Assembly: GCA_963813155.1 (NCBI GenBank)
Contig: CAWEYG010000003.1
Coordinates: 672,001 to 736,000 of the forward strand
Length of the DNA stretch: 64,000 nt
Reading direction: 5' to 3'
Source of the DNA: an uncultured Acidobacteriota bacterium
GTDB taxonomy: Bacteria; Acidobacteriota; Thermoanaerobaculia; UBA5066; DATFVB01
Below are positions 42,563-64,000 of the stretch, piece after piece. Positions within the stretch are counted from its first letter, which is position 1. Each line of letters begins with the position of its first letter. The position numbers and the translations under genes are program-made. The notes beneath the pieces were generated by a model that was not told the DNA's origin, did no database searches, and was given only the letters and a program-made list of their open reading frames with translations.

Positions 42563-43810
42563 ATGGACATCGCACGCGATACCCGAAAGCCGAAACGCCG
42601 GCGGATCATCCTCGGAATTTCCGGGGTCCTGGCCGTACTGCTCGTCACGCTCGGCCTGAGCCGGCTCAAGCCCGCCGCCCCGTCGGTTGACCGCGGAACG
42701 CTCTGGATCGATGCCGTCAAACGCGGCGAGATGCTCCGCGAGGTGCGAGGAACTGGAACGCTCCTGCCCGAAGTGGTGCGCTGGATCCCCGCGGCCACAG
42801 AAGGGCGGGTGGAACGGATCCTCGTCTACCCCGGAACCGAAGTGAAGCCGGACACCGTGATCCTCGAGCTCTCCAACCCGGACGTCATGCTGGCCTCGCA
42901 GGACGCCGCGCTGCAGCTCAAGAGCGCGGAAGCCGATTTCGTGAGCCAGCGCGTGAGCATCGAGGGGAAGCAGATGGACCAGCAGTCGACGCTCGCCTCG
43001 CTGGAGGCCGACTACAACCAGGCTTCGCGGGAATCCGCGATGAATGAAAAACTTTTCCAGGACGGGCTCGTCTCCAGTTTAGTGCTGCAGAACTCGCGCG
43101 GGAAAGCGGAGGAGCTCTCGAAGCGTCTCGACATCGAGCGGCGGAGGCTCGCCATGAGCGGAGATTCCGTCCAGGCGCAGCTCGCGGCGCAGCGGACTCA
43201 GGTCGAAAAGGTCCAGGCGCTCGTCGCGGTCCGCCGGGAGCAGGCCGGCGCCCTGAAGGTCCGGGCGGGCATCCGGGGGGTCCTCCAGCAGGTTCCCGTC
43301 GAAGTGGGCCAGCGCGTCGCCCCGGGCGCGACGCTCGCGAAGGTCGCCCAGCCGGAGAAGCTCAAGGCGGAGTTGAAGATCGCGGAGACCCAGGCCAAGG
43401 ACATCCTGCCCGGCCAGCTCGCCTCGATCGACACGCGCAACGGCATCGTGCCGGGCAAGGTCTTCCGCATCGACCCGGCCGTTCAGAACGGAACCGTCAC
43501 GGTCGACGTCGCCCTCCTCGGAGACCTCCCGAAGGGCGCCCGGCCCGACCTGACGGTCGACGGAACGATCGAGCTCGAGAGGCTCGAGAAGATCCTCTTC
43601 ATCGGGCGCCCGGCCTTCGGCCAGGAGCGCAGCACCGTGGGAATGTTCCGGCTCGATCCGAACGAGAAATTCGCCGTTCGCGTCCCCGTCCAGCTCGGGC
43701 GGGGCTCGGTCAACACGGTCGAGGTGGTCGGCGGTCTCAAGGAGGGAGAGAAGGCGATTCTCTCCGATATGTCGCGTTGGGACGGTTTCGACCGAATTCG
43801 ACTGGAGTGA
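42563..43810 (+). CDS. HlyD/MacA-like periplasmic adaptor (membrane fusion protein)
   Basis: N-terminal TM; V.RG.M.REVRG.GTL.P, coiled-coil hairpin, G.V.RIDPAVQNGTVTVDV, RPDLTVDG, GLKEGEK. Confidence 0.92.
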   Translation: MDIARDTRKPKRRRIILGISGVLAVLLVTLGLSRLKPAAPSVDRGTLWIDAVKRGEMLREVRGTGTLLPEVVRWIPAATEGRVERILVYPGTEVKPDTVILELSNPDVMLASQDAALQLKSAEADFVSQRVSIEGKQMDQQSTLASLEADYNQASRESAMNEKLFQDGLVSSLVLQNSRGKAEELSKRLDIERRRLAMSGDSVQAQLAAQRTQVEKVQALVAVRREQAGALKVRAGIRGVLQQVPVEVGQRVAPGATLAKVAQPEKLKAELKIAETQAKDILPGQLASIDTRNGIVPGKVFRIDPAVQNGTVTVDVALLGDLPKGARPDLTVDGTIELERLEKILFIGRPAFGQERSTVGMFRLDPNEKFAVRVPVQLGRGSVNTVEVVGGLKEGEKAILSDMSRWDGFDRIRLE

Positions 43811-43821
43811 AAGGAAGCGGG

Positions 43822-44538
43822 ATGAACGACACCTCGAAGGCCATGGAAGACCGGTTGATCCAGATGGTGGGTATCCAGAAAGTCTTCTACACGGAAGAAG
43901 TGGAGACCCACGCCCTCTCGGAAATCCATCTGGAAATTTGCCGCGGCGAATACGTCGCGATCGCCGGCCCGTCGGGCTCGGGAAAGTCGACGCTCCTCGC
44001 GATCATGGGCCTGCTCGACACTCCGACCGGCGGCCAGTACATCCTCGCGGGAAAGCCCGTCGAGGACATCGACGCCTCCGAGCGGGCGCGAATCCGGAAC
44101 CGGCAGATCGGATTCATCTTCCAGAGCTTCAACCTGATCGGCGACCTGACGGTTTACGAGAACGTCGAGCTGCCACTGACCTACCGCGGCATGTCGTCGG
44201 CGGACCGCCGGACCCGCGTGCACGAGTCGCTCGAGCGTGTCGGGATGAGCCACCGCACGAAGCACTATCCTTCGCAGCTCTCCGGCGGCCAGCAGCAGCG
44301 CGTCGCGGTCGCCCGCGCCCTCGCCGGCTCGCCATCGATTCTCCTGGCCGACGAGCCGACCGGAAACCTCGACTCCCGGAACGCCGAATCCGTCATGGAG
44401 CTCCTCCAGGAACTGCACCGGGAGGGAGCGACGATCTGTACGGTCACGCACGACCCCCGGTTCGCCCAGCACGCCGACAGGACGATCCACGTGTTCGACG
44501 GGCGAATCGTCGAAGAGACGCTCGCGGCGGAAGCCTAG
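43822..44538 (+). CDS. ABC transporter ATP-binding subunit (MacB/LolD-type)
   Basis: GPSGSGKST Walker A, GFIFQSFNL, LSGGQQQRVA signature, LLADEPTGNLD, VTHD. Start 43822 or 43843. Confidence 0.95.
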   Translation: MNDTSKAMEDRLIQMVGIQKVFYTEEVETHALSEIHLEICRGEYVAIAGPSGSGKSTLLAIMGLLDTPTGGQYILAGKPVEDIDASERARIRNRQIGFIFQSFNLIGDLTVYENVELPLTYRGMSSADRRTRVHESLERVGMSHRTKHYPSQLSGGQQQRVAVARALAGSPSILLADEPTGNLDSRNAESVMELLQELHREGATICTVTHDPRFAQHADRTIHVFDGRIVEETLAAEA

Positions 44539-44550
44539 AAAGGGGCTGCC

Positions 44551-47017
44551 ATGGAGACGGTGCGAGCCTTTCTCCGGGACCTCCGACACGCGGTCCGTGC
44601 GCTCGCCGCCCGCCCGGGTTTCACCGCCGCGGCGATCGTCTCGCTCGCGATCGGGATCGGCGCCGGGACCGCGATCTTTTCGGTCGTTTACGGCGTCCTC
44701 CTGCGGCCCCTTCCCTACCCGGGCGAAAACCGGCTCGTCGATGTCGCCGAGGTCAACGCGAAAGGACACGTCACGCGGATGGCCGACGCGAACTTTCTCG
44801 ACCTGCGCGACCGAAGCCGGACGCTCGAGGCGCTCGCCGAGTACTCGTCCGGCGTCGGAGCCGTCGCGACGCCGACCGAAGCTCTCCGAACGGACGTCGC
44901 CTCCGTTTCGGCGCAATTCTTCCGCACTCTCGGCGTCGAACCGTCGTTCGGCCGCGGCTTCGCGCCGGCCGAGCTCGTCCCGGGCGGCCCTCCGGTCGCC
45001 CTCGTCAGCGAAGAATTCTGGCGCGCTCATCTGGGCGCCGCGCGCAATCCGGGGTCGGTTCCGCTTCGCATCGACGGAGTGCCCCACACGGTCGTCGGCG
45101 TCCTGCCCGCCGGTTTCCATTTTCCCGCAGCCGCGCAGGTGTGGGTGGCGCGGGAGCGGTTCCCGTGGCTTCCGAGTCGCACCGCGCACAACGACCGGGT
45201 AATCGGCCGGAGGAAGCCCGGCGTCTCGCTGGACGCGCTGCGCGCGGACCTCTCGGCCATTGCGAAGCGCCTCGCGGCAGAATACGGCAAGGACACCAAC
45301 ATGGCCGACACGGCGGCCGTGCCGCTGCGCGAATCGATCGTCGGCCGCACCCGGCCCGCCCTTTTCCTTCTCCTGGGCGCGGCGGCGGCGCTCTTTCTGG
45401 TCGGATGCGTGGACGTCGTGGCGCTGCTCCTGGCGCGCGCGGCGTCCCGGCGACGCGAAATCGCAGTTCGACGCGCGCTCGGCGCGGGCCGCCTTGACGT
45501 CATCCGCACGTTTCTCGCCGAGGCGCTCGGTGTTTCCATCCCGGGAGGGATCCTCGGTGTGGCGATCGCCGCGGTCCTCGTGCGCTCGGTCGCCCGGTTC
45601 GCGCCTCCCGGCCTCCCGCGGGTCGCAGAGATCGCGATCGACGCTCCGGCTCTCGCCGCCGCGCTGTTTCTCTCCGTGTTCGCGGCGGGGATGCTCGCGG
45701 TCGCAACCGCGTGGAACGAGTACGGCAGCCGGCTCGCCGAAGTGCTCCGCGGGCACCAGACCACCTCCGACACCCGGACTCGCCGGGCGCAACGAACGCT
45801 CTCGGTCGGCCAGCTCGCCGTCACGACCGTCCTCCTCGCGGGTGTTTCCCTGCTCGCCCGAAGCCTCACCCGGCTGCTCGACGTTCCTTTCGGATTCCAG
45901 CCGGCTCACGTGCTGACCATGGATCTCGACCTTCCGGCCGCGGGATATCGCTACGTCCTTCCCTCGGACGAACGGTCGCAAAGGGCCGAGAAGATCGCCC
46001 GCGTCCTCGACGGCGTGAGCCGCCTCCCGGGCGTCGAAAAGGTGGGAGCGACCGACGCGCTCCCGATCGGTACCGACGCGCCCGACGGCACGTTTCTCCT
46101 TCTTCAGCCGGGACAGGCGATCACCGATCCGTCCGATTTCGAACGGCTCTTCCGGGACGCCGGCCGAACGGGATCGGCCGATTTCGCGCTCGCGACGGCC
46201 GGGTACTTTCCTTCGATGGGAATCCCTCTGCTGCGGGGACGCCTGTTCGACGCGCGCGACGGCGCAGACGCCCCTCACGTCGCCGTGATCAGCCAATCCC
46301 TGGCGAAGGCGCGCTTCGCCGACCGGGACCCCATCGGGCAGGCGATCGAGTTCGGCAACATGGACGGCGACCTGCGGCCGCTGACGATCGTCGGCGTGGT
46401 CGGCGACGTGCACGAGAGCCGCATCGAGAACCCGCCCGAGCCCATTCTGTACGCCAACCTCGCGCAGCGCCAGAAGGGACCGACCGTGACCGTGACGATA
46501 CGCGCCGCCGGCAACCCCCTCGCGCTCGCGGCAGGCCGCGCGTCGCGTCGCTCGCGACGTGGATCCCTCCGTTCCGGCGACGATTCGGACCATGGACGAA
46601 GTGATCGCGGAGGCTGTCGCGCCCCGCCGCGTCGGGCTCCTGCTGCTTGTGGTCTTCAGCGTGGCCGCGCTCGCGCTCGCCTGCACGGGGCTCGCCGGCA
46701 TCACGGCCTACTCGATCGCCCAGCGGCAGCGCGAGATGGGAATCCGAACGGCGCTGGGGGCGCGTCCCTCCGGTCTTCTCGGGCTGCTTCTTTCCGAGCA
46801 GTCCCGGCTGGTCGCCGCCGGCGTGGCGGCGGGAGCCGTGATCGCCGCGGCGTTCGGAGGGACGGCTCGCGCGGTGCTGTTCGGAGTCGAGGCCTGGGAC
46901 CCGCTCTCGCTCGCGGCGTCCGCGGCGGTTCTCGCCGGGTGCGCGACGATCGCCGTTCTGATCCCCTCCCTGCGCCTGCTCCGGCTTCCCGCTGCGGACG
47001 CGTTGCGAATGGAATGA
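44551..47017 (+). CDS. ADOP-type duplicated MacB/FtsX ABC permease #1, frameshift near 46531
   Basis: DLRHAVR.L..RPGFT...LAIGIGA.TAIFS; RRREIAVRRALGAGR; second repeat QRQREMGIR.ALGA; ends DALRME (ORF 46559..47017). Confidence 0.9.
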
Positions 47018-47026
47018 GGTGAAAAA

Positions 47027-49438
47027 ATGAACGGCTTTCTGCACGACCTTCGATTCGCCGCCCGCTCGCTGAGAAAGTCGCCGGGCTTCACGGCGGTCGC
47101 CGTCGCGACCCTGGCGCTGGGGATCGGCGCGAATACCGCCATCTTCTCCGTCGTTCATGCCGCCCTTCTTCGCCGGCTGCCGTTCCGGGACGCCGATCGG
47201 CTCGTCTTCGTCTGGGAATCCGCCAGGACGCAGGGTTCGGAGAAAAACGTCGTCAACCCGGGCAACTACATGCGCTGGACGGAGAGAAACCGATCCTTCG
47301 AGAGCCTCGCGGCGATGACCCCGTGGACCGCGAACCTGAGCGGGCCGGGAGATCCCGTTCGAATCAAGATCGGCTACGTCTCGGGGAACTTCTTTCCGAC
47401 TCTCGGAGGCCTGCCCCTCGCCGGACGGCTCCTGCAACCGTCGGACGCGAAGGACCGGAGCCCCGACGTGGTCGCAATTTCCGCGGGGCTCTGGCAGAGG
47501 CGCTTTGGAAGCGACCCCTCGATCCTCGGGAAGATCGTCCGGATCAACGGCGTCCCCTGCGCCGTGGTCGGAGTCGTACCGCTCCATCTCGACGTTCCCG
47601 CCGGCACGGATGTCTGGATGCCGATGGCGTTCGGCGCCCGGCAGCGGGACGTGCCGGGAAGGTATCTGACCGTCATCGGGCGTCTGAGGAGGGGCGTTTC
47701 CCTTCGACAGTCTCAGCAGGAAATGGCGTCGATCGCGGCCGCGCTTCGGAAAGAGCGTCCCGACATCGACAGCGGGTGGGGCGCGCGCGTCGTTTCGATG
47801 CGCGAACAGATCGTCGGCGATTTTCGAACCGGCCTTCTGGTCCTGATGGGGGCCGTCGGCTGCCTCCTGCTGATCGGTTGCGCGAATCTCGCGAATCTCG
47901 TCCTCGGCCGGACGGCCGGCCGGCGGCGGGAGCTCGCCGTTCGCGCCGCGCTCGGGGCTTCCCGCGGGCAGATCGCCCGGGCCCTCCTCGCCGAAACCGT
48001 TCTGCTCGCGATCGCGGGAGGCTTCGCAGGAGGCGCGTTCGGAATCCTCGGCGTCCGGGCGCTCCTGGCCCTCGTCCCGGCGGACCTTCCGAATTTCCTC
48101 GGCGTGCGCGTCAGCGCGCCCGTTCTGGCATTCACGGCGGCCGTCTCGGTTCTCGTCGGCTTTCTCTTCGGCCTCTATCCGGCCCTTCGCGCCGGAGGTG
48201 GAAACCTGCAGGAGAGACTGCGGGGCGCGGGCTCGACGGACTCGCCCACGGGCGCGAAATACTCCCGCTGGCTGATCGGCATGGAAGTCGCCGCCTGCGT
48301 CGTCCTTTTGTCCGGCGCCGGCCTGCTCCTGAGAAGCCTGGCCGCGCTCTGGAGCGTCGATCCCGGTTTCCGCACCGAAAGCATCCTGACTTTTCGCCTC
48401 GACCTTCCCACCCGGAGCTACTCCGATTCGCAGAAAATCACGACTTTTTCGGATGCCGCGGAACAAAGGCTGCGCTCCCTGCCCGGCGTGAATAGCGTCG
48501 GGGTCATCAGCTGGCTACCGCTCGGCGGGCCCGGCGCGGCGACCCAATACTTTCCCGCGGACCGCCCCGCGCCGGCCCCGGGCTCCGAACCGGTTGCCGA
48601 AGTTCGAGTCGTCAGCTCCGGATTCTTCCCGACGGCGGGAGTGCCGCTTCTTCACGGCCGGCTCTTCGGAAACGAGGACTCGGCGCGGAGCCCATTGCGC
48701 GCCGTGATCAACGCTCAGCTGGCCCGAAGAAGCTTCGACGGCCGCGATCCGATCGGTAAGCGGCTTTCCGTGAGCTGGGGCCCGGCCCCGGAAGGCGAGA
48801 GCGTGGAAGTCGTCGGCGTCGTGGCGGACTCGCAATTCGTCTCTCTCGACGCGGAAGTTCGCCCGGTGATCTTCCTTCCGCAGAGCCAGCAACCCAACAA
48901 TTTCATGACCGTGCTGTTGCGAAGCTCCGGGCGCCCGGCGTCCCTCGCGCCGTCGATTCGCGCGACGATCCGCTCCCTCGATCCGGAGCTGCCTGTCGCG
49001 GAGATTCAACCGATGGACAGGGTCGTCGCGGATTCCCTCAAACGGCCCCGGTTCTTCTCGACGCTCCTCGGCCTGTTCGCAGGTCTCGCGCTCCTGCTCG
49101 CGGCCATCGGCGTCTACGGCGTCGTCAATTCGTCAACCGTCCGGCGAACCCGCGAAGTCGGAATCCGGATCGCTCTCGGCGCGCGCCCCGCCGACATCGT
49201 CCGGAACGTCGTCTCACGGGGGATGTTGCCGGTCGCCGCGGGCGCCGCAACCGGCCTCGCGGGATCGTTCGTCGCGGGGCGCCTCCTCAAGAGCCTCCTG
49301 TTCGGAAGAACCCCTGTGGACGCCGTCGCCCTCCTCGGCGCGGTTTTCCTTCTCGTTACGACGGCCCTCATCGCCTGCGCGATTCCCGCCCGACGCGCCG
49401 CGAAAATCGATCCCCTCCGGGCGCTTCGAGCAGAGTGA
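47027..49438 (+). CDS. ADOP-type duplicated ABC permease #2
   Basis: 803 aa; two MacB_PCD+FtsX repeats (RRRELAVRAALGA; RTREVGIRIALGA); ends DPLRALRAE. Confidence 0.93.
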   Translation: MNGFLHDLRFAARSLRKSPGFTAVAVATLALGIGANTAIFSVVHAALLRRLPFRDADRLVFVWESARTQGSEKNVVNPGNYMRWTERNRSFESLAAMTPWTANLSGPGDPVRIKIGYVSGNFFPTLGGLPLAGRLLQPSDAKDRSPDVVAISAGLWQRRFGSDPSILGKIVRINGVPCAVVGVVPLHLDVPAGTDVWMPMAFGARQRDVPGRYLTVIGRLRRGVSLRQSQQEMASIAAALRKERPDIDSGWGARVVSMREQIVGDFRTGLLVLMGAVGCLLLIGCANLANLVLGRTAGRRRELAVRAALGASRGQIARALLAETVLLAIAGGFAGGAFGILGVRALLALVPADLPNFLGVRVSAPVLAFTAAVSVLVGFLFGLYPALRAGGGNLQERLRGAGSTDSPTGAKYSRWLIGMEVAACVVLLSGAGLLLRSLAALWSVDPGFRTESILTFRLDLPTRSYSDSQKITTFSDAAEQRLRSLPGVNSVGVISWLPLGGPGAATQYFPADRPAPAPGSEPVAEVRVVSSGFFPTAGVPLLHGRLFGNEDSARSPLRAVINAQLARRSFDGRDPIGKRLSVSWGPAPEGESVEVVGVVADSQFVSLDAEVRPVIFLPQSQQPNNFMTVLLRSSGRPASLAPSIRATIRSLDPELPVAEIQPMDRVVADSLKRPRFFSTLLGLFAGLALLLAAIGVYGVVNSSTVRRTREVGIRIALGARPADIVRNVVSRGMLPVAAGAATGLAGSFVAGRLLKSLLFGRTPVDAVALLGAVFLLVTTALIACAIPARRAAKIDPLRALRAE

Positions 49439-49447
49439 GGTGACGCG

Positions 49448-51859
49448 ATGACCGGAATTTGGCACGACCTCCGATACGCGGCGCGGACGCTCCGCAGGTC
49501 TCCCGGTTTCACCGCCGTCGCGGTCCTGACGCTCGCCCTCGGCATCGGAGCGAACACGGCGATCTACGGCATCGTCAACGGAGTCCTCCTGCGGCCGCTC
49601 CCCTTTCCCGACTCGGATCGCCTCGTCATGGTCCGCGAAGACGAGCCCGAGAAGGGATTTCTCGGCATGACCGCTTCGCCCCCCAATTTCCTGGATTGGA
49701 AGGCCCAGAGCCATTCCTTCACGGATCTCGCCGCCTACGATCGAAGCTCGGACGCGGTCACCGGCTCGGGCGATCCGGAGCAGGTGAAGTACGCGGAGGC
49801 CACGGCCTCGCTCTTTTCCGTCCTCGGCGTCCGCCCGGCGATCGGCCGCGTCTATTCGGAGCAGGAGTGCGTCAAGGGGAAAGACCGCGTCGCGGTGTTG
49901 AGCCACGGGCTCTGGCTGCGCCGATTCGGAGGACGCGCGGACGCGGTCGGTTCGACTCTGCGGCTCGCCGGCGAGCCGTACACCGTGATCGGGGTGATGC
50001 CGCCCGGGTTCCAGTTTCCGGCGACGAACCACGACCTCTGGATTCCCATGAGCTTTCCCGCAGACGTCGCGACGCAGCGCGGCGCCCATTACATTTCCGT
50101 CGTGGGACGGCTTCGGCCGGGGGTTTCCCTTCCGGGAGTCGAGACCGAAATGAAGGGAATCGCGTCCCGCCTCGCGGCCGCGTATCCCAAAACGAACCAG
50201 GGGCACACGGTCTCGATCAAGACGCTGAAGGAACAGATCGTCGGAAAGGTGAAGCCCGCGCTCCTCCTGCTGATGGGAGCCGTCGCTCTCGTCGTCCTGA
50301 TCGCCTGCGCGAACGTCGCGAACCTGCTCCTCGCCCGCTCGTCGGGCCGCGGCCGGGAAATGGCGGTTCGCACCGCGCTCGGCGCGGGCCGGCCGCGCCT
50401 GATCCGGCAGCTCCTCACGGAGTCGTTGCTCCTCTCCGGAATCGGCGCGGCGCTCGCGGTCCTGCTCGCGCGGCTCGCCGACGGACTCATCATCCGGTTC
50501 GGACCGAAGGACATTCCGCGGCTCGCCGAGGCGGGAATCGACGGCGCGGTTCTGGCCGTGACGGCGGGGATCGCCGTGGCGACAACCGTCGTTTTCGGCC
50601 TGCTCCCCGCGCTTCGGGCGACCCGCTCCAGTCCGTCTTCCACGCTCAAGGAAAACTCTGCCACGGGAGGCCCGAACCGGGAGCGCCTCCGCGGCGTCCT
50701 CGTGGCCGGCGAGATGGCGCTCGCGCTCATGCTCCTCGCCGGCGCGGGCCTTCTCGTCAAGAGCCTTTCACGGCTGGTGCGAATCGACCCGGGGTTCCGA
50801 ACCGACCACGTCCTGACGTTCGACCTCACACTCGACTCGAAATACAAGGACACGGCGGCGGTGTCCGGCTTCTATCGAGGCCTTCTCGACGAGATCAACC
50901 GGATCCCCGGCGTCCGCGCTTCGGGAAGCGTGTTCTGCGCCCCGCTCTCCGACTCGGGGTTCAGCAGCTCGTTCTCCGTTCGGGGCGCTCCCGTCCCGGA
51001 GCAGGACCAGCCTTCGCTCAATCTCCGCGTCGTCTCGCCCGATTACTTTCGCACGATGAGGATTCCGCTCGTCGCAGGCCGGCTCCTCTCGGACCACGAC
51101 CGCCGCGGCGGCGACCGGGTCCTGCTGCTCACACAGACGGCGGCGCGCAGGTTCTGGCCGAACGGAGGAGCAATCGGACAATACCTGCGCCTCGGCGCGC
51201 GGCCGAGCTCGGACGAGGTGGAGGGCACGGTCGTCGGGATCGTCGGGGACACCCGTGATTCCGCTCTCGCCGAAGACCCGCAACCCGCGGCCTACTTTCC
51301 GCTCGACCAGGTCGGCGTTTCGGGATTGACGATCGTCGTTCGAACGGCACAACCGCCCAAAGCCGTCGCCGCCTCCGTTCGAAGCGTCGTCTCCCGCCTC
51401 GACCGGGACCTGCCGGTCGTCGGAATGACGTCGATGGACGACGTCGTCTCCCAGTCGCTCGCGCGACCCCGGTTCTACGCATTCCTGCTCCTGGTCTTTT
51501 CGCTGACCGCCCTCGGGCTCGCCGCCGTCGGGATCTACGGGGTCCTTTCGTACGCGGTCGCCCAGCGGACCCGGGAAATCGGCATCCGGATCGCCGTCGG
51601 GGCAGAGCGCAAGGACGTGATGGCGATGATCCTCCGCCGGGCCGCGCTCCTCGCGCTCACCGGCCTGGGAGCGGGGCTCGTCGCGTCGCTTCTCTCGACG
51701 CGCCTGCTTTCGGGGATTCTCTACGGCGTGGCGCCGACGGACCCCGCGACGATCCTCGAGGTCTCGGCAGTTCTTTTCGCCGTCGCGCTCCTGGCTTCCT
51801 ATTTCCCGGCGCGCCGGGCGACGCGGGTCGATCCGATGACGGCGCTTCGGAACGAATGA
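49448..51859 (+). CDS. ADOP-type duplicated ABC permease #3
   Basis: 803 aa; LIACANVANLLLAR...REMAVRTALGA; QRTREIGIR; ends DPMTALRNE. Confidence 0.93.
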   Translation: MTGIWHDLRYAARTLRRSPGFTAVAVLTLALGIGANTAIYGIVNGVLLRPLPFPDSDRLVMVREDEPEKGFLGMTASPPNFLDWKAQSHSFTDLAAYDRSSDAVTGSGDPEQVKYAEATASLFSVLGVRPAIGRVYSEQECVKGKDRVAVLSHGLWLRRFGGRADAVGSTLRLAGEPYTVIGVMPPGFQFPATNHDLWIPMSFPADVATQRGAHYISVVGRLRPGVSLPGVETEMKGIASRLAAAYPKTNQGHTVSIKTLKEQIVGKVKPALLLLMGAVALVVLIACANVANLLLARSSGRGREMAVRTALGAGRPRLIRQLLTESLLLSGIGAALAVLLARLADGLIIRFGPKDIPRLAEAGIDGAVLAVTAGIAVATTVVFGLLPALRATRSSPSSTLKENSATGGPNRERLRGVLVAGEMALALMLLAGAGLLVKSLSRLVRIDPGFRTDHVLTFDLTLDSKYKDTAAVSGFYRGLLDEINRIPGVRASGSVFCAPLSDSGFSSSFSVRGAPVPEQDQPSLNLRVVSPDYFRTMRIPLVAGRLLSDHDRRGGDRVLLLTQTAARRFWPNGGAIGQYLRLGARPSSDEVEGTVVGIVGDTRDSALAEDPQPAAYFPLDQVGVSGLTIVVRTAQPPKAVAASVRSVVSRLDRDLPVVGMTSMDDVVSQSLARPRFYAFLLLVFSLTALGLAAVGIYGVLSYAVAQRTREIGIRIAVGAERKDVMAMILRRAALLALTGLGAGLVASLLSTRLLSGILYGVAPTDPATILEVSAVLFAVALLASYFPARRATRVDPMTALRNE

Positions 51860-51869
51860 GGAGGCTCGA

Positions 51870-54295
51870 ATGAACCGCACGGCCCAGAACGTCCGCTACG
51901 CCCTTCGCTCGTTCCGCCGGAGCCCGGGGTTCTCCCTCGTCGCGATCGGTACACTCGCGCTCGCGATCGGGACGACGACGGCGATTGTTTCGCTCTCGCG
52001 CGCGGCGTTGACGAAGTCCCTTCCGTACCGGGATCCGGAAAGGCTCGTCCACGTCTGGGTCACGTATCCGAACGGGGAGCACGAAACGTCTTATCCCGAC
52101 TACCTCGACTGGCGAAGCAAAAGCGCCGCGTTCGAGGACATGGGCGGATACGTCGGCGGGCTGAAAGGCTCACTACGGCTGCGCGCGGATTCCGTGCCGG
52201 TCCGCGCCGCGACCGCGACCGCGAGTTTCTTCACGACGCTCGGGGTCGCGCCGATCCTTGGCCGCGGATTCGACGCGCGCGACGAGCTCCCGAATTCGGA
52301 ACGCGTCGTGCTCCTGAGCCACCGGCTGTGGGCCGAGCGGTTCGGCGCCGACCCGGGCATCGTCGGCCGTTCGATCGAATTCAACGGCTCTCCGAGGCGC
52401 ATCGCGGGAATCCTGCCGTCGCTCTTCAACTTCGCTCCCGCCGGCGGGGCCGAGATCTGGGTGAACGTGCGTCTCGACGCGGAGCGGATGCGACGCAACC
52501 TCTGGTGGCTCAACGTCGTCGCGAGAACGAAGCCGGGAGTCTCGACTCGAAAAGCCCGTGCGGATCTGGCCCACGTCCAAGCGTTGCTCGAGAAGGCTTA
52601 TCCCGATTCCGACTCGGGTCTCGGGATCCGGCTCGTGTCCCTGCGCGACCAGGTGCTCGGCCCCGTGCGGCCCATCCTCGCCGCCCTTCTCGGCGCCGTC
52701 GCGGCCGTCCTTCTGATCGCGTGCGCGAACGTCGCGGGCCTCCTTCTCGGCCGGGCTTCGGCGAGGAGAAAAGAAATCGCTATCCGGATGGCGCTCGGCG
52801 CCGGCTCGCGCGATCTCGTGGCGCAGTTGCTCACGGAAAGCCTCACTCTCGGCGCGATCGGGGGCGCGATCGGAATTCTCGGGGCCCACTGGGGCGTGCG
52901 TCTGCTGCTCTCCGGAATTCCCGAGGCCCAGGCCGCCGCCATGCCGTATCTCGCGCACGCGGGCCTCGACGGAGAAGTCCTGCTCGCGGGAATCGCTCTC
53001 TCGCTCGGCAACGGGAGTGCTGTTCGGCCTCGTCCCGGCGCTCCAGAGCGCGCGGCCGGCCCCGGAGGAGGCCCTGAAAGACGGATACGCGGCCGGCGGC
53101 CGGTCCCGCAACCGGATGCGCAGCGCTCTCGTCGTCTCGGAAATTGCGATCGCGATCGTGCTGCTCACGGGAGCGGGCCTGATGCTCCGAAGCACGCTCG
53201 CTCTTCTCCGGGTGGATCCGGGCTTCGAGACGAAGAACCTGCTGACTCTCCAGATTGCGCTCCCCTCCAACGGCCGCTATGAAGGCGAGGACAAGCTCGC
53301 GATGTTCCACGACCAGCTCATGGCGAAGGATCCGCGCGGTTCCCGGCGTGAAGTCGGTCGGAACGGTGGACGTTCTGCCGCTCTCCGGCGGCGGCAACAC
53401 CGTGGACTTCGCCGTCGAGGGAAGGACGGTCCTTCCGGGTCAGGAGATGGAAGCGAACATCCGCACGGTCTCGCCGAACTATTTCCACGACATGGGCATC
53501 CCGCTCGCGGGCGGGAGGGCCTTCGACGCGAGGGACGTCCGGAGCGGTCCGCGAACCGTCATCGTCAACCGCACGCTCGCCCGCCGCTTCTTCGGCGGCG
53601 CGAACCCGATCGGCCGCCGGATCCGGTTCACGTTCAACGACAAGCAGCCGTTCCGGGAGATCGTCGGCGTCGTCGGCGACGAAAACGAGAAGAGCCTCGA
53701 CTCGGAGCCCGCGCCCGTCGTCTACGCGAGCTTCTTTCAGAGCCTCGACGACTCGATGAGCGTCGTCGTCCGCACGGCAGGGAGGCCGGAGGACCTCGGG
53801 GCTTCGGTGAAGGCGGCGATCCGTTCGATCGACAAAGACGTCATGATCCTCGACGTGACGAGCATGGGGCGGCTCATCACCGACGCTCCGTCCACTTTCC
53901 TCCGGCGCTATCCCGCCTTCCTCATCGGCCTCTTCGCCGCGCTCGCCCTCCTTCTGGCGGCGATCGGCCTGTACGGGATCATGGCGTTCGCGGTGAATTG
54001 CCGCGTGCGCGAGATCGGAATCCGCGTCGCCCTCGGCGCGCAGCGCGGCGACGTGATCGGAATGGTGCTCCGCGAAGGCAGCCGCCTCGTCGCGGCCGGG
54101 CTCGCTCTCGGGATCGCCGGCGCCCTCGCGGCGAGCCGCCTTCTGGCCTCGATCCTCTTCCGGACCAAGCCGTTCGATCCGCCGACGATCGCCGCGGTCT
54201 CGACTCTTCTCGCTCTCGCGGCGCTGCTCGCGTGTTATCTGCCCGCCCGCCGGGCCGCGAACGTCGATCCAATGGTCGCGCTGCGGGAAGAGTGA
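51870..54295 (+). CDS. ADOP-type duplicated ABC permease #4, frameshifts near 53008 and 53329
   Basis: Joined from ORFs 51870, 53017 and 53255; same two-repeat motifs; ends DPMVALREE. Confidence 0.9.
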
Positions 54296-56801
54296 GGGAA
54301 TCATGAGCGGGATCTTCCAGGACGTTCGGTATGCTTTGCGATCCCTTCGCAAAACGCCGGGTTTTACGGTGGTCGCCGTGTTCACCCTCGCGCTCGGCAT
54401 CGGCGCGAACACCGCGATCTTCTCGGTGGTCGACGCGGTTCTTCTTCGCCCGCTTCCGTTCCGCGCGCCCAACCGCCTCGTCATGGTCTGGGAACGGAGG
54501 CCGCAACGCGACCACGTGGTCGCGAGCTACCCGGATTTCCGCGACTGGCGAGACCGCAGCCGTTCGTTCGACGGCATGGCGGCGTTCTCGGCCTGGACGC
54601 ACAATCTCACCGGCGCAAGCTCTCCGGAGCGCGTCGAAAGCGCCGTCGTCTCGACGAACTTCTTCGACGTCCTCGGGGTCACGCCGAGCATCGGCCGAGC
54701 CTTCCGGCCGGAGGAGGAAACGAAAGGCCACGACGATGTCGTCGTGCTGGGCCACGCGTTCTTTCTGAGGCGATTCGGCGGCGATCGATCCGTCGTCGGA
54801 AAGAACATTCTGCTCGACGGAACACCCTTCCGGGTGATCGGCGTGGCGCCGACCGGAATTCGGCTCCCGTCGCTCTCGTCGAACACGGATCTGTTCGTTC
54901 CGGTCATCACCGAGCGCGCCGCGAACGAGACGGCGCCCGCCGGCGCGCCGCACGAGCATGACGGTCCGGTCGTCGCCGACCGGGCCGCCCACGGGTATTA
55001 CCGGGCGGTCGAGAACCGGCAGGGACATTACCTGAGCGTCGTCGCGCGTCTCAAGGGACGGGGTCTCGCTCGCCGCCGCGCAGGGCGATCTCTCCGCGGT
55101 CGCCCGCACGCTTCAGCGGGAGTACCCCGTTTCGAACTCGAACCACGCGATCGACGCCTTCCCGCTTTCGCGCGAGGTCGCCGGTCCCGCGCGCCCGGCT
55201 CTCCTCGCGCTTCTCGGCTCGGTTTTCGTCCTCCTCGCGATCGCGTCGGTCAACGTCGCGAACATGCTCCTTTCGCGAGCCACGGCGCGGTCCCACGAGA
55301 TCGCCGTCCGCACGGCCCTTGGCGCCGGCCGTGCTCGGCTGGTCCAGCAACTCCTGGTCGAGAGCCTCGTCCTGTCCCTGATCGGCGGCGCGCTGGGGGT
55401 CATCGCCGCGTCGACGGGTGTCGCGCTCGTCCGGAGATTCGGGCCCGCGGACATAGCCCGCCTCGACCAGGCGCGGGTGGATGGGGCCGTCCTCCTCTAT
55501 GCGTTCGCGATCTCGCTCGCGACCGGAGTTCTTTTCGGCCTCGCGCCGGCCGCGCACGCCTCCGTGAAGCGCCTGAGCGATGCCCTCAAGCAGGGCGACC
55601 GGCGCGTCGCGCGGGGGGAAGGGCGAGCGGGGCGCGTCCTCGTCGCGTCTGAATTCGCGCTGTCGGTGGTTCTCCTGCTCGGCGCCGGGCTCATGCTCAA
55701 GAGCTTCTGGCGCCTCGCCCACGTCGACCCCGGCTTCGCAACGGATAGGATCATGACCGCGGAGCTCGATTTTCCCGAAGCGAAGTACCCGCGGGGGCGC
55801 GACATTTCGGCCTTCGGCACGCGGCTGCTCGAGCGGCTGCGCGCCATGCCCGGCGTCGATCGGGCCGGCGCCGTTTCGAACCTGCCGTTCCGCGGCGATC
55901 GGCGAATGAACCTGTCTTTCGTCGTCCAGGGACGGCGATCGGATCCCGCCAGTCCGCTCATCGCCGTCTACTCGTCCGCGACACCCGGCTACTTCGAAAC
56001 GCTCGAGCTCCCTCTCGAGCGCGGACGCCCGTTCACCGACGGCGACACCCGCGAGGCGCCGAAAGTCGCAATCGTCAACCGGACCCTCGCGCACTCCATA
56101 TTCCCCGGACAGGATCCCGTCGGCCGGCGGATCTCCCTCGAGGACGAGCCCGGGCCGAACGACTGGGCGACGATCGTGGGAGTCGTCGGGGACGTCCGGA
56201 GCGATTCGCTCGCCTCGGCCGCCACGAACCAGATCTACATGCCCTTCGCTCAGAACGCGCAATCGGGCATGGCCGTCGTCGTGCGCGCGCGAGAGCCGAA
56301 GGCGCTTGCCGCCGCGATTCGTTCGGCCGTCTCGGAGATCGATCCGGACGAGCCCGTGTACGCCATCCTGCCGCTCGCCGACATCGTGGCGGAGACGACG
56401 GAGCAGCCCCGCTTTCGAGCGTTCCTCACCGCCGCGTTCGCCGCGCTCGCGCTGATTCTCGCGGCGATCGGAATCTACGGCGTGCTGTCGTATTCCGTCG
56501 CGCGGCGCACGCACGAGATCGGGATCCGGATCGCGCTCGGCGCCGCGCGGAGAGACGTGCTGCGGCTCGTCGTCGGAGGCGGGATGCTCCTCGCCGTGAT
56601 CGGCGTCGCGGTCGGTCTGATCGCCGGCGCGCTCGCTTCGCGAGCGCTTTCGGCGCTGCTCTACGGTGTTGCCGCCACCGACGTACCGACGTTTGCGGCC
56701 GTCGCCGGGATTCTCCTCGGCGTCGCGCTCGCGGCGTCCGTCGTGCCCGGGTGGCGGGCCTTGCGCGTCGACCCCATGGTCGCGCTGCGGGAAGAGTGAG
56801 G
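54272..56801 (+). repeat. Exact 26-bp direct repeat flanking permease #5 (54272-54297 and 56776-56801)
   Basis: ATGGTCGCGCTGCGGGAAGAGTGAGG read at both positions. Confidence 0.85.
54303..56799 (+). CDS. ADOP-type duplicated ABC permease #5, frameshift near 55056
   Basis: Joined from ORFs 54303 and 55264 frames; about 30-aa insertion in the first periplasmic domain; ends DPMVALREE. Confidence 0.9.
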
Positions 56802-56808
56802 TGAAACG

Positions 56809-59229: not shown

Positions 59230-59238
59230 GGTGATTCG

Positions 59239-61680
59239 ATGAACGGATTTCTCCACGATCTCCGCTATGCGCTGCGCGGAATCCGGAAGTCGCCCGGGTT
59301 CACGGTCGTCGCCGTCGCGACCCTCGCGCTCGGCATCGGCGCGAATACCGCGATCTTCAGCGTCGTGCGGGCGGTGCTGCTGCGTCCCCTGCCTTTTCCC
59401 CGCGCCGACCGGCTCGTGGCCGTCGATCAGGTCGCCCGGGGCGGGCAGCACGAAGCGATGTCAGCGGCCGATTTCCTGGACGTGGCGGCGCAGACCCGCG
59501 ACACGGTGCGGCTCGCGGCCTCGAGGGAGCGGGAGCTCACGCTCTCGCTCGCCGGCAACCCGGAACGCGTCGGGGCAGCGGTCGTCACGCCGAATTACTT
59601 TTCCGTTCTCGGTCTCGAGCCGCGGCTGGGGCGCGGATTTCTCGAGAGCGGGGCGGGACAGAGGCGCGAAGTCGTCCTCAGCCACTCCCTCTGGGTGCGG
59701 CGATTCGGCTCGCGCCGCGACGCCGTCGGCGAGAACGTGGTGCTCGACGGCGAGCCGGCGAGCATCGTCGGCGTGCTCGGCCCGGGCGCCGACTATCCGG
59801 TCGACACCGAGCTGTGGGCCTCTCCCCGCGCCGGCTTCGCCGCCCCGGAGCATCCCCTCGAGCCCCAATCCGACCCGGCGCAGATGCGCGGGTCGCATTA
59901 CTTCGAGGGGGTCGGGAGGCTTCGCGACGGGATATCGCCGGAACGGGCGCGGGCCGATCTCGATGTCGCGTTCGACCGGGTCGTGAGCGCTCATCCCGAT
60001 TCCGACTTGAAAGACGCGCGCGCGGGAATCGAAGACCTCCACCAGCACGAGGTGAAGGGTTCCCGGGGTTCGCTCTACGCCCTTCTCGGCGCCGTCGGCC
60101 TCGTGCTCCTGATCGCCTGCGCGAACGTCGCGAACCTGCTTCTCGCGCGCGGCACGATTCGTTCGCACGAGATCGCGGTGCGCACGGCGCTCGGCGCCGG
60201 CCGCGCCGCGCTCGTGCGGCTCTTTCTGGCGGAGAGTTGCCTGACGGTGCTCGCCGCCGCCGCGCTCGGCGTCGGCGTCGCGCATCTCGGAACGGGCGCT
60301 CTCGCCGCCCTCCTCACCCGGGGGATCGTCGCCGCCGACACCGTGCGGATCGACGGATCCGTTCTCGCTTTCACCCTTGCGCTCTCGATCGCGGCCGCGC
60401 TCCTGTTCGGCCTCTGGCCCGCGATTCGCTCGTCCGGGCGGGATCCCCAGCTCGTGCTCCAGCGGGGGACGCGGACTTCCTCCGGAGAGCACCGGCTCAC
60501 CCATGGCGCCCTCGTGCTCGTCGAATCCGGCCTTTCGCTGCTCCTTCTCGTCGGAGCCGGACTCCTGCTGAAAAGCCTCTCCCGGATCCTCGCCCAGGAC
60601 GAGGGCTTTCGGGCGGACCGCATCCTCACGCTTGCGACCTCGCTGCCGCCGATCCGATACGCCGATCCGGAAGCCCGCGTTCGTTTCGTCGACCGCGTGC
60701 TGGAGAACGCGCGATCGCTCCCGGGCGCCCGCAGCGCGGCGGTCGTGTCGCGCCTTCCCCTCAATTCCGGCAACAGCACCCGAAGCTTCGTGATCGAAGG
60801 CCACACGTATTCGGCATTTCAGGATTCCGAGCCGCTGAGCCCCGACTACCTGGTCGCCAGCCCGGGCTACTTCGAGTCCCTCGGCATCCCCGTTCTGGCC
60901 GGGCGCTCCTTCACCGACCGCGATCGCGCGAATGCGCCCCCCGTCGCCGTCATCAGCCGGGCGATGGCGCAGGCCTTCTGGCCGGGCGAGAGCCCGATCG
61001 GCAAGCGCATCAAGAACGGGGGGATCTCGGATCCCATACCCTGGGTTACGATCGTGGGCGTCGTCGGCGACGTCCGCCAGCACGACCTCTCCCGGAACGG
61101 CGCTCCGACGCTGTACGTTCCCTACGATCAGGACCCCTGGACGTTTCTCACGGTCGTCGTGCGGACCTCCGGGGCGCCCGAGGCCCTTTCCGGCGCCGCC
61201 ATCGCCGCGATCCGCCGCGCCGATCCCGATCAGGCGGTGTTCAACGTCCGGCCCATGGAAGACGTCGTGGCGCGTTCGATCGGACCGCGCCGCGCGAACA
61301 CCCTCCTCCTCGGGCTCTTCGCGGCGCTCGCGCTCCTCCTCGCGGCCGTCGGCGTCTTCAGCGTGATGTCCTTCGGCGTCGCGCAGCGAACGCGCGAGAT
61401 CGGCATCCGGGTCGCTTTCGGCGCGCGTCCGGCCAACATCCTCCGGCTGATCCTCGGCGACGGCCTTCGCTGGGCCCTTCTCGGCGAAGCGAGCGGGCTC
61501 GTTGCCGTTCTCGCCCTGCGCCGAACCCTGGAGCACTTCGTCTTCGGCGTCCGCGCGACCGATATCGCGACGCTGGCCGGAGCCGCCGGATTGCTTCTGC
61601 TCGTCGCGACGGCGGCCTGCGCCGTTCCCGCCCTTCGCGCCCTTCGGGTCGATCCGCTGACGGCGCTCCGGTACGAGTGA
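59239..61680 (+). CDS. ADOP-type duplicated ABC permease #7
   Basis: 813 aa; same architecture; ends DPLTALRYE. Confidence 0.93.
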   Translation: MNGFLHDLRYALRGIRKSPGFTVVAVATLALGIGANTAIFSVVRAVLLRPLPFPRADRLVAVDQVARGGQHEAMSAADFLDVAAQTRDTVRLAASRERELTLSLAGNPERVGAAVVTPNYFSVLGLEPRLGRGFLESGAGQRREVVLSHSLWVRRFGSRRDAVGENVVLDGEPASIVGVLGPGADYPVDTELWASPRAGFAAPEHPLEPQSDPAQMRGSHYFEGVGRLRDGISPERARADLDVAFDRVVSAHPDSDLKDARAGIEDLHQHEVKGSRGSLYALLGAVGLVLLIACANVANLLLARGTIRSHEIAVRTALGAGRAALVRLFLAESCLTVLAAAALGVGVAHLGTGALAALLTRGIVAADTVRIDGSVLAFTLALSIAAALLFGLWPAIRSSGRDPQLVLQRGTRTSSGEHRLTHGALVLVESGLSLLLLVGAGLLLKSLSRILAQDEGFRADRILTLATSLPPIRYADPEARVRFVDRVLENARSLPGARSAAVVSRLPLNSGNSTRSFVIEGHTYSAFQDSEPLSPDYLVASPGYFESLGIPVLAGRSFTDRDRANAPPVAVISRAMAQAFWPGESPIGKRIKNGGISDPIPWVTIVGVVGDVRQHDLSRNGAPTLYVPYDQDPWTFLTVVVRTSGAPEALSGAAIAAIRRADPDQAVFNVRPMEDVVARSIGPRRANTLLLGLFAALALLLAAVGVFSVMSFGVAQRTREIGIRVAFGARPANILRLILGDGLRWALLGEASGLVAVLALRRTLEHFVFGVRATDIATLAGAAGLLLLVATAACAVPALRALRVDPLTALRYE

Positions 61681-61690
61681 GGAGACCAGA

Positions 61691-64000
61691 ATGAACGGAT
61701 TTCTCCAGGACATTCGCTACGCTCTGAGGAGCTTCCGAAGGAACCCGGCGTTCGCGGCGACGGCCATCCTCACGCTCGCGCTCGGAATCGGGGCGACGAC
61801 GGCGGTCTTCAGCTTCGTGAACGGGATTCTGCTTCGCGCCCTTCCCGCGCCGGAGCCTTCCCGCATCGTTTTCATCACTCGCTCCGGGGACGTCTCCATC
61901 CCGGACGGTCGGGACTGGCGCGCGTCCGCGCCGGCCCTCGGTTCGGTGGGACTCTTCCTGCGCGACTGGGACCTCGACCTCACGGGCCTTGGCGAACCCG
62001 AACGCCTGCGTTCCGCGGTCGTCGAGGCGCAGTACTTTCGCGTTCTTGGCATCGCGCCGCTCGTGGGACGAACGATCGAGCCGGCGGACGACCAGTCGGG
62101 GGGACGCCGGGTCGCGGTCATCCGGGAAGCCTTCTGGAACCGGCGCTTCCGCCGCGACCCCGCGATCGTCGGGAAAGTCATATCCCTGAGCGATCACCCC
62201 ACGACGATCATCGGCGTCATGCCGGACGCCTTCGACGTTCTCGGGGACGGCACCGACGTCTGGGTGCCGGCGGCCGTGGAAACGCCGTGGGCGCTCGGCG
62301 AACGAGGCACCAACAACTTCGACGCGATCGGGCGCCTCGCTCCCGGCGCGAGTCTCGCGACCGCAAAAGCACAGCTTCGCTCCGTTTGCGAGCGGCTCGA
62401 GCGGCAGTTCCCCGCGACGAACCAGGGAAAGGTCGTCGAACCGATTCTGCTGCTGGACTTCCTCACCGGCGCCGTCCGGCGCGGGATTCTCGTGCTGTTC
62501 GCCGCCGTCGCCTTCGTCATGCTGATCGGATGCGTGAACCTCGCGAGCCTCCTGCTTGCGCGGCTCGCTTCGAGGGGACCGGAGCTGGCGGTGCGCCGGG
62601 CGCTCGGCGCGGGCAGTGCCAGGATCTTCCGGCAACTGATCGTCGAGGCGGAAGTCCTCAGTCTCGGCGGCGCGCTGCTCGGAGTCCCGATCGCCGCCGC
62701 CGGAACGCGCATGCTCCTGCGCCTGGCGCCCGCGAGCCTTCCCCGCTCCGGCGGGGTGGCCCTCGACCTGCCCGTCCTCGCGTTCGATTTCGGAGCGGCC
62801 CTGCTCGCGGGACTCGCCTGCGCCGCGATCCCGGTCTGGCGGTCGCGGCGAGCGGATCTCTTCGCGCCGGCCGGCGGCGGACGACAGGCGGGCTCGCTGC
62901 GCCGGAGCGGGTCGCTCGGATGGATCATCGCCTCGGAAATCGCGCTCGCCGTTCCCCTCGTCGTCGGGGCGCAGCTGCTGACGCGGAGTTTCCTGGGATT
63001 GAATCGGGTTCCTCTCGGTTTCGAGCCGCGAGGGGCCCTGACCGCGGAGCTCGTCCTCCCCGAGAGCCGCTACTCCGACCGCGCCGCGCAGACCCGGGCG
63101 TTCCGGCGAATCGTCGGGGAGTTGTCCGCCACGCCGGGGATCGAATCCGCGGCGTCGGTGATCGGGGCTCCCCTCCGTCCGTCCGGGCGCGGAATCGGGT
63201 CCTCGATCGACGTGGCCGGCGCCGCGCCTGACCGCTCAGGACGGGCCCCGAGCGCGCGAGTCCGGCCCGTTCTGGGAGACTATTTTCGCGCCCTCCGCAT
63301 TCCTGTCCTTCGGGGACGGGTTCTCCGAGACGCCGACGACGAGAACCACGAGCCGGTCGCGGTCGTCAATCTCGCCCTTGCCCGGCGGTACTGGCCCGGG
63401 CAGGAGGCGGTCGGGAAGACGATTCGCCTCTCGGGCTGGGACGATCCCCGCTCGTTCCGGGTCGTCGGCCTCGTGGCCGACACGAAGCCCTCGGATCTCA
63501 CGGAAGAAGACACGCGGGCGGTCTACATCCCGTACGCCCAGCGAGCGCCGGCGTGGCAGCGATTCGGCACGATCGTGGTCCGCGCGGCGCGCGGCGCAAC
63601 GAATCTGCTGCCCCGAATTCGCGAGGCGATCTGGAGAGTCGACCCCTCCCTGACGATCTCGGAGATCGAGCCCCTGGACCTTCAGTTCCGCCGGAGCCTC
63701 GCGCCCTCGCGCTTTCTCGCCCAGGTGCTCGGAGGCTTCGCGGCCGCGGCCCTTCTCCTCGCCGCACAGGGCCTTTACGGCGTCCTCGCCTACTCCGTCG
63801 TTCTCCGGCGCAAGGAGATCGGCGTGCGGATCGCGCTGGGAGCGACGCGCGGACGCGTCATCTCCCACATCGCGCGCCGGGCCGCCCTTCCGGTCGCCGC
63901 CGGACTCGGCGCGGGCGTCGCAGCCGCGTTCCTCGCTCGCCGGGTTCTGGGGAACCTCCTGTTCGGGGTCTCGAGCTCCGACCCCGCGACGTACGCCCTG
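61691..64000 (+). CDS. ADOP-type duplicated ABC permease #8, truncated by the window end
   Basis: Not in the ORF track because it is open-ended. ATG 61691 gives MNGFLQDIRYALRSFRRNPAF...LALGIGATTAVFS; the same frame reads LFGVSSSDPATYAL at the window end. Confidence 0.9.
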   Translation, partial: MNGFLQDIRYALRSFRRNPAFAATAILTLALGIGATTAVFSFVNGILLRALPAPEPSRIVFITRSGDVSIPDGRDWRASAPALGSVGLFLRDWDLDLTGLGEPERLRSAVVEAQYFRVLGIAPLVGRTIEPADDQSGGRRVAVIREAFWNRRFRRDPAIVGKVISLSDHPTTIIGVMPDAFDVLGDGTDVWVPAAVETPWALGERGTNNFDAIGRLAPGASLATAKAQLRSVCERLERQFPATNQGKVVEPILLLDFLTGAVRRGILVLFAAVAFVMLIGCVNLASLLLARLASRGPELAVRRALGAGSARIFRQLIVEAEVLSLGGALLGVPIAAAGTRMLLRLAPASLPRSGGVALDLPVLAFDFGAALLAGLACAAIPVWRSRRADLFAPAGGGRQAGSLRRSGSLGWIIASEIALAVPLVVGAQLLTRSFLGLNRVPLGFEPRGALTAELVLPESRYSDRAAQTRAFRRIVGELSATPGIESAASVIGAPLRPSGRGIGSSIDVAGAAPDRSGRAPSARVRPVLGDYFRALRIPVLRGRVLRDADDENHEPVAVVNLALARRYWPGQEAVGKTIRLSGWDDPRSFRVVGLVADTKPSDLTEEDTRAVYIPYAQRAPAWQRFGTIVVRAARGATNLLPRIREAIWRVDPSLTISEIEPLDLQFRRSLAPSRFLAQVLGGFAAAALLLAAQGLYGVLAYSVVLRRKEIGVRIALGATRGRVISHIARRAALPVAAGLGAGVAAAFLARRVLGNLLFGVSSSDPATYAL

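Follow-up and report, generated by a model that had tools for sequence, protein, structure and literature searches.

Soil Acidobacteria and some Bacteroidota encode strongly expanded sets of ADOP permeases (TIGR03434), and the 'orphan' of the family name refers to a permease that does not stand beside an ABC (ATP-binding cassette) ATPase. The passages on ADOP in PMC3174227 and PMC11573002 describe only the expansion of paralogues, two Dyadobacter strains having 28 and 33 copies (PMC11573002); papers given by PMC number are drawn on in excerpt throughout. A cluster of 42 kb described in Psychroflexus torquis contains ten ADOP paralogues (the figure legend gives eight); there the neighbouring transporters include ATP-binding ones, protein abundance is high and a role in efflux was suggested (PMC3914696). 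Here we describe a locus of the same family in an uncultured Acidobacteriota bacterium. NCBI assigns close homologues of one of its proteins to the Thermoanaerobaculia, to which the host probably belongs. In a stretch of 64,000 nt (the window, G000:C3:672001-736000, where G000 is the source genome), the segment 42563-64000 in window numbering had been interpreted, in a sequence-only reading, as one adaptor and one ATPase followed by at least eight tandem ADOP permeases. The array is real and longer than first described: the whole locus covers ~30 kb and comprises one adaptor, two ATPases, ten ADOP permeases (P1 to P10), a sigma-54 response regulator and a histidine kinase (Table 1). Overall, the earlier interpretation was partly confirmed.

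The components resemble those of several well described transporters. With MacAB-TolC (PDB 5nik, 5lil, 5gko) the locus shares the unit of four helices and a periplasmic head, the LolD/MacB-type ATPase and the membrane-fusion adaptor, but MacB is a homodimer with a fused ATPase and one permease gene, whereas here the permease halves are fused, two kinds of ATPase are encoded separately and there are ten permeases; the MacB model NF007826 is far below its cut-off in the locus. DarBCD (PMC8442675), single deletions in which cut darobactin titres 2-4-fold, also consists of a permease of ~780 aa (model length), an adaptor and a separate ATPase, and DarD is the best NCBIfam match of both ATPases of the locus. 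In contrast to our case, DarBCD has one permease and one ATPase and is linked to a precursor peptide and to a radical-SAM gene, and the Dar models NF038007/8/10 remained far below cut-off (255/375, 21/700 and 62/450 bits; 242/375 for ATPase-2). In YbbAP-TesA (PDB 9ge6; PMC12646458) the permease is likewise duplicated, with two periplasmic heads and two coupling helices, but YbbP has ten helices including a two-helix linker, whereas eight are predicted in P3, P6 and P8, and the system has a single permease, an ATPase that is a homodimer and, in place of an adaptor, a hydrolase; the YbbAP-type model NF041854 reaches at most 27 of 999 bits in the locus. BceAB-BceRS (PMC7438565) offers the parallel of a fused type VII permease beside a two-component pair whose kinase has no extracellular sensor. 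It is a Firmicute system with a 10-helix, one-head permease and without adaptor, whereas the present locus has a sigma-54 regulator and many permeases per kinase. The system described here would work like MacAB-TolC or DarBCD and is a member of neither.

Among the type VII architectures described in the excerpted part of PMC5985334, a two-ATPase ADOP operon does not appear, and no paper on a two-ATPase, sigma-54-regulated ADOP operon was found in a literature search of material outside subscription journals and supplements. The supplements of the Psychroflexus paper (PMC3914696) may bear on the layout in that organism. A cluster of ten ADOP paralogues is known from Psychroflexus torquis, and the excerpted text on it proposes neither a shared-core mechanism nor a two-ATPase pair or a mode of regulation; what is newly described, compared with that cluster as presented there, is a predicted two-ATPase, sigma-54-regulated operon with a defined core, ATPase pair, promoter, enhancer and turnover of units.

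In the window, the adaptor, a LolD/MacB-type ATPase (ATPase-1) and eight consecutive ADOP units on the + strand, separated by gaps of 7-12 nt, were confirmed by hidden Markov model (HMM) scores and open reading frames. The adaptor is over the cut-off of PF13437 and PF16576 and reaches 93.4 bits with TIGR01730 (cut-off 94.9). At each of the seven junctions between permeases in the window, the stop codon TGA overlaps a GAGG motif resembling a ribosome site (TGAGG). As had been stated, the array units are accompanied by no PadR gene and carry no N-terminal prefix, and the array runs on at the window edge, to ten units. The notion of a single ATPase holds inside the window only, since ATPase-2 follows P10 past the edge; dedicated ATPases for each permease just outside the window, which would have spoken against sharing, were not found. 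A terminal sigma-54 regulator, a kinase and a TolC gene had been proposed as things to look for on the extended contig: the first two are present after ATPase-2, the locus contains no TolC gene, and the gene 3' of the kinase lies on the opposite strand. The array is not a product of chance, because of the HMM scores and because the same layout is found in seven relatives (see below). With two ATPases flanking them, the 'orphan' label fails for the array permeases.

Table 1. Features of the locus and stand-alone ADOP genes (window numbering, or contig numbering where a contig is given)
Feature	Position	Strand	Family match or remark
Tandem enhancer-like element, TGTCCG-N4-CGGACA type, degenerate here	42410..42449	+	
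Sigma-54 (-24/-12) promoter-like box, GTGGCAC-N5-TTGA	42523..42539	+	39 nt before adaptor start
Periplasmic adaptor (membrane-fusion protein), 415 aa, one N-terminal membrane anchor	42563..43810	+	TIGR01730, PF13437, PF16576
ATPase-1, LolD/MacB-type, every motif canonical, D-loop GNLD	43822..44538	+	
ADOP P1, one extra base near 46533 in assembly	44551..47017	+	intact orthologues 69-75% identical in G003-G005
ADOP P2, 803 aa	47027..49438	+	TIGR03434 917 bits
ADOP P3, 803 aa, eight membrane helices, two periplasmic heads (modelled)	49448..51859	+	TIGR03434 981 bits
ADOP P4, extra bases near 53009 and 53325 in assembly	51870..54295	+	G002 has an intact orthologue (82% identity)
ADOP P5, one extra base near 55053 in assembly	54303..56799	+	
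ADOP P6, 806 aa	56809..59229	+	TIGR03434 901 bits
ADOP P7, 813 aa	59239..61680	+	TIGR03434 870 bits
ADOP P8, 802 aa, crosses window edge, end G000:C3:736099	61691..64000	+	TIGR03434 825 bits
ADOP P9, 818 aa, past window	C3:736125-738581	+	TIGR03434 984 bits
ADOP P10, past window, two frame breaks in assembly	C3:738624-741067	+	
ATPase-2, 221 aa, D-loop GNLH, past window	C3:741111-741776	+	
Sigma-54 response regulator, past window	C3:741810-743180	+	
Histidine kinase, two membrane helices, without periplasmic sensor domain	C3:743191-744546	+	
Stand-alone full-length ADOPs, N-terminal prefix, after PadR-like genes	C2:352682-355700, C4:8889-11932, C5:193652-196653, C5:265260-268240, C5:269283-271997		

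ADOP membership was borne out by the HMM check with TIGR03434, PF12704 and PF02687. The curated TIGR03434 cut-off is 622.3 bits (whole-protein score); P2, P3, P6, P7 and P8 exceed it as they stand in the window (781-981 bits), and P2, P3, P6, P7, P8 and P9 at full length score 825-984 bits. In P1, P4, P5 and P10 the reading frame is interrupted by frameshifts of the assembly, and the resulting pieces together tile the model. P3 carries two PF12704 (MacB_PCD) and two PF02687 (FtsX) stretches in one chain. Its predicted structure (pLDDT 88.8, pTM 0.84) suggests a type VII ABC fold, with a coupling helix and a 4-helix unit in which a large periplasmic domain separates helix 1 from helix 2. The top Foldseek matches of this model were YbbP, MacB and LolCDE, the best being YbbP (PDB 9ge6; E 4.6e-21, TM 0.45), and a sequence search of solved structures returned MacB-type half matches only. 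By hydropathy P3, P6 and P8 have eight membrane segments and three others tested seven to nine. The internal duplication and the MacB-like model support the proposal that each chain would be a complete pseudo-dimeric unit. Coupling helices incompatible with the ATPase had been named as a possible objection to this scheme; the motif RxxE-x3-R-x-A-x-G is intact in both halves of all ten permeases. The two halves nevertheless differ in a conserved manner, EIAVR..R-R-L-R-QLLTES versus EIGIR..variable (94 array proteins). A complex prediction with P3 residues 252-803 and both ATPases (score 0.06, mark 0.32) was used neither for nor against any reading.

The ten permeases are pairwise 34-46% identical, and no two of them are close sisters in a tree of 109 ADOP proteins, from which units in pieces of <550 aa (one each in G014 and G020) were left out. 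Paralogues are most alike in the N-terminal helix (61% identity), less so in the later membrane helices (43-47%) and least in the periplasmic heads (34%). The longest exact DNA word common to units is 34 nt, DNA identity amounts to 66-76% in short conserved stretches, and no att-like repeat was found at the in-window unit junctions; for these reasons recent tandem duplication or DNA-repeat cassette exchange was rejected as the main origin of the array, and recombination at conserved unit ends may still take place. Among the array permeases examined, just one pair of recent tandem duplicates was seen, in L015 (G020:C2:481775-486609). When G000 was compared with G002 by a simple counting method (dS 0.8-1.3), omega was 0.04-0.07 in core genes and 0.15-0.19 in the permeases P3 and P6, indicating purifying selection. 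In the P3 and P6 orthologue pairs omega was 0.13-0.16 for the heads versus 0.18-0.23 for the membrane parts, and diversifying selection on the heads was rejected for these two pairs. The idea of a library of different heads is thus borne out as far as paralogues are concerned, whereas heads of orthologues evolve no faster than the membrane part. Judged by their sequences the ten permeases are old paralogues, and because of the latter observation they are probably stable specialists, not a hypervariable library.

The relatives were compared in an order sample of 21 and a phylum sample of 61 genomes; the tallies for the adaptor and ATPase-2 in both samples, and for ADOPs over cut-off and the nearest TolC in the order sample, include the unpublished genome G008, on which no other result depends. 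Adaptor and ATPase-2 occur, each in single copy apart from a duplicate fragment on contig C22 of G000 (see below), in the same 11 of the 21 order genomes, and an ADOP over cut-off in 12, the twelfth being G001 (78% complete). The arrays of the seven relatives contain 12, at least 11, 9, 10, 10, 11 and 12 permeases. All six unbroken ones have the layout adaptor-ATPase-1-(ADOP)n with ATPase-2 and end in the regulator and kinase; ATPase-2 follows unit 2, unit 6 or the final permease. Their core proteins are 51-95% identical to those of G000; the best permease match in the other family has 37-54% identity. Seven G000 units have orthologues at least 55% identical, and none was found for P2, P8 and P9 among the relatives' sequences compared. 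At 55% identity the 109 ADOP proteins form 58 groups, no G000 unit having an orthologue in every relative. The order is shuffled within the genus (P7-P6-P3-P10 in G002), and P1 orthologues come first in all three same-family arrays whose start is on one contig (G000, G004, G005). Metagenome contigs lose their match at gene junctions, before P4 in X3 record 21 and after P1 in X4 record 28, which hints at different neighbours in close strains. The comparison of array content that had been suggested thus revealed variable content and order around a constant core.

In the phylum sample (ATPase-2 match threshold E<=1e-75, at most 49 candidates scored per genome) ATPase-2 was detected in 19/61 and the adaptor in 27/61 genomes, with both in 18 and the adaptor without an ATPase-2 match in 9. 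Nine phylum loci, picked for proximity of adaptor and ATPase-2, have the adaptor and both ATPases within 20 kb, together with 0, 0, 0, 1, 1, 4, 5, at least 6 and ~8 permeases. A single full permease accompanies both ATPases in G029 and G036. In L042 (G035), L049 (G022) and L050 (G073) the core genes, both ATPases included, have no ADOP in 20 kb, and the permeases, if any, are elsewhere. L042 also holds TolC, regulator and kinase genes, and is the only one of the nine phylum loci with TolC. A full-length membrane-fusion adaptor is present in every locus read.

The four frame breaks in the window, in P1, P4 and P5, which the sequence-only reading had not mentioned, are most likely assembly errors, because short-read contigs lack all four. 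The extra base is absent at each of them in contigs of run X1, at three of the four in X3 (a related strain from another study), and at one in X2 and X4. Run X1 is possibly the source sample, and in that case it shows assembly error and is not independent support. The two breaks in P10 lie beyond the stretch compared with reads; the G002 orthologue of P10 is intact. The neighbouring Lon and RND genes are likewise frame-broken in the assembly. Near-identical copies of the promoter and of the first 219 adaptor codons were seen a second time at a contig end (G000:C22:12865-13676), and this adaptor fragment probably reflects strain redundancy in the bin.

ATPase-1 and ATPase-2, each encoded by a single-copy gene, are 43-44% identical, and Walker A, Walker B, signature and H-loop are intact in both. 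In ATPase-2 the usual GNLD of the D-loop is replaced by GNLH. The His was found in 117 of 118 readable close homologues of ATPase-2 (related sequences, not independent events) and in all eight readable phylum loci, and Asp in all 12 other readable G000 ATPases. In TAP, dimer affinity falls and transport becomes uncoupled from hydrolysis when the Asp of the D-loop is replaced (PMC4242082). Taking into account that both ATPases are kept beside a single permease and that the coupling helices are unequal, the simplest explanation is an ATPase-1/ATPase-2 heterodimer, and we slightly favour the view that such a heterodimer drives the permeases.

The adaptor gene is preceded by a sigma-54 promoter-like box and a tandem enhancer-like element. 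The strict sigma-54 pattern has 20 matches in the G000 genome, the box upstream of the adaptor among them. A TGGCAY box was found upstream of the adaptor in 10/10 genomes, and in all ten a TGTCCG-N4-CGGACA-like tandem element lies 90-118 nt upstream of it; in G016 the box is ~270 nt before the adaptor. A matrix of enhancer and box, built from nine relatives with one training site misregistered, ranks two G000 sites clearly first: C1:454645(-), then the adaptor promoter. The former site (L039 ~18550-18645) precedes an AraC-family gene (L039 17521-18534(-)), downstream of a DUF2911 gene. It is probable that the tandem element is the binding site of the sigma-54 regulator and that the AraC-family gene is a second member of the regulon. 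The array contains 14 terminator-like sites versus 12.9 in shuffled sequence, and no sigma-70-type promoter was found in 42100-62000 or in L001 1-13000. The locus is very probably one regulated operon. By hydropathy, the kinase has helices at 13-31 and 42-60, with a loop of ~10 residues in G000, and the same two-helix, short-loop pattern was seen by eye in all 12 other genomes in which the N-terminus was read. Kinases of the Bce type sense within the membrane and depend on the transporter (PMC7438565).

As the best explanation of the whole, held with somewhat more confidence than doubt, we propose that one sigma-54-driven operon encodes a shared-core type VII (MacB-like) ABC exporter. As sequence and model suggest, each ADOP chain would form a complete pseudo-dimeric membrane unit and dock on the shared adaptor and on the ATPase-1/ATPase-2 heterodimer, with one ATPase per unequal coupling helix. 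That motor and adaptor are shared by all permeases is quite probable. As in MacB and YbbP, the periplasmic heads would be squeezed when ATP binds, and by analogy with the family, substrate taken up in the periplasm or at the outer side of the inner membrane would be pushed to a TolC-type duct encoded elsewhere; export through TolC is rather likely. Each permease probably has its own substrate range, peptides or hydrophobic envelope-active compounds, which is the weakest step. The permease set would broaden the range of substrates, lineages gain, lose and reorder permeases, and the adjacent kinase and regulator would switch the operon on via the conserved enhancer. The retention of both ATPases with one or no permease fits an ATPase pair needed per permease, with permeases supplied in trans. 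Of the first interpretation, the duplicated units, the missing per-permease ATPases, the regulator and kinase and the variable content are retained, whereas the single ATPase and the hypervariable library are not.

Several observations weigh against this proposal. There is no TolC gene in the locus, and the closest G000 match to the TolC of the G035 locus, C3:85992-87752, is of a type present in 20/21 relatives regardless of the array; as a dedicated TolC it was not borne out, being present in almost all relatives. The -12 element is non-canonical in 6/10 genomes, and a weak hairpin with a T-run (L001 8072-8087 (+)), located in the 43 nt that separate P10 from ATPase-2, could reduce read-through. 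Other LolD/MacB-type ATPases of G000, 40-51% alike to ATPase-1, could serve some of the permeases. DarBCD functions with a single ATPase (PMC8442675), the duplicated permease of YbbAP sits on a homodimeric ATPase in 2:1 ratio (PMC12646458), and the 9/27 adaptor-positive phylum genomes without an ATPase-2 match (at the threshold and candidate number given above) indicate that ATPase-2 is possibly dispensable in some lineages. The YbbAP precedent, with a YbbA homodimer on a pseudosymmetric permease, and these nine genomes also favour two separate homodimeric motors, of which ATPase-1 would export and ATPase-2 would serve a subset of permeases or a regulatory state, and so does the movement of ATPase-2 within the array. 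We consider this arrangement unlikely, given that both ATPases are kept with a single full permease in G029 and G036 and that two classes of coupling helix are not evident among the ten permeases, the conserved difference being between the halves.

It is less probable still that the locus is mainly a multiplexed sensor resembling BceAB-BceRS, in which the kinase would read the ligand-bound permease and fire the sigma-54 regulon, export being secondary or the function being target protection. The kinase with its two helices and short loop, the reliance of Bce-type kinases on the transporter (PMC7438565), the lack of TolC in the locus, the second enhancer and sigma-54 site before the AraC regulator and the uncoupling effect of D-loop substitution in TAP (PMC4242082) would suit such a sensor, but the full-length adaptor in every locus read and the TolC in the G035 locus point to trans-envelope export, the 8-helix, two-head permease and the sigma-54 regulator are unlike Bce, and the cytoplasmic region of the kinase could sense alone. 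Tight translational coupling suggests similar amounts of each permease, and together with the first position of the P1 orthologues in three same-family arrays this could be taken to mean that different ADOP chains cooperate in one hetero-oligomeric machine or relay, e.g. for an envelope polymer or lipoproteins. With unit numbers from 0 to 12, content that is not conserved, and chains that each already fill both halves of a MacB-like dimer, such cooperation is very improbable. Decay or neutrality of an array made up of recent tandem duplicates, to which the frameshifts in 4 of the 10 units might point, is largely refuted: short-read contigs contain none of the four breaks in the window, the Lon and RND neighbours are broken likewise, and the G000 units include no close sisters, share no exact word longer than 34 nt and, where omega was determined, are under purifying selection.

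For ADOP permeases, the shared-core exporter reading names a probable motor, adaptor, promoter and regulator, and the one-permease loci of G029 and G036 represent a natural minimal system open to expression and testing. If true, a heterodimeric ATPase on a type VII transporter and one kinase served by many transporters would each extend what is known of this class. A more far-reaching version, which we regard as speculative and doubtful, is a plug-in transporter-sensor, in which one asymmetric ATPase pair with its naturally altered D-loop, the adaptor and the sensor-less kinase would serve 10-15 exchangeable permeases including the PadR-controlled 'orphans' elsewhere in the genome. The kinase would then read flux through any permease that encounters its ligand, and one core would provide a Gram-negative soil bacterium with a wide repertoire for surveillance and export that can be reconfigured.

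The five stand-alone ADOPs of G000 (Table 1) are preceded by genes labelled PadR-like from their sequence, not by family scan, and are not among the top matches of the promoter matrix; they could use the array core in trans. A further ADOP fragment is at the end of C6. Eight outer-membrane efflux protein (OEP) genes are found in G000, all outside the locus. The TolC-like gene at C3:85992-87752 adjoins a lone MacB-type ATPase 50% identical to ATPase-1, with no permease beside the two genes (G000:C3:85992-88533), and is a candidate duct. Eleven kb upstream of the array (window 26173-31876 (+)) lies an operon with a TolC-like gene, an adaptor and a pump labelled RND-type from its sequence, the pump gene being frameshifted in the assembly. 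Three consecutive genes follow it (window 31873-34312 (+)), which encode a GAF-domain protein, another signalling-type protein and a small response regulator. The Lon protease gene (window 39824-42363 (-)), also frameshifted in the assembly, is divergent from the operon, and the same Lon 5' region is upstream of the adaptor in G002-G005. In G012, G014, G016 and G020 (L009, L011, L013, L015) the upstream gene ends in repeated (D/E)LVxM(R/K)IHG motifs.

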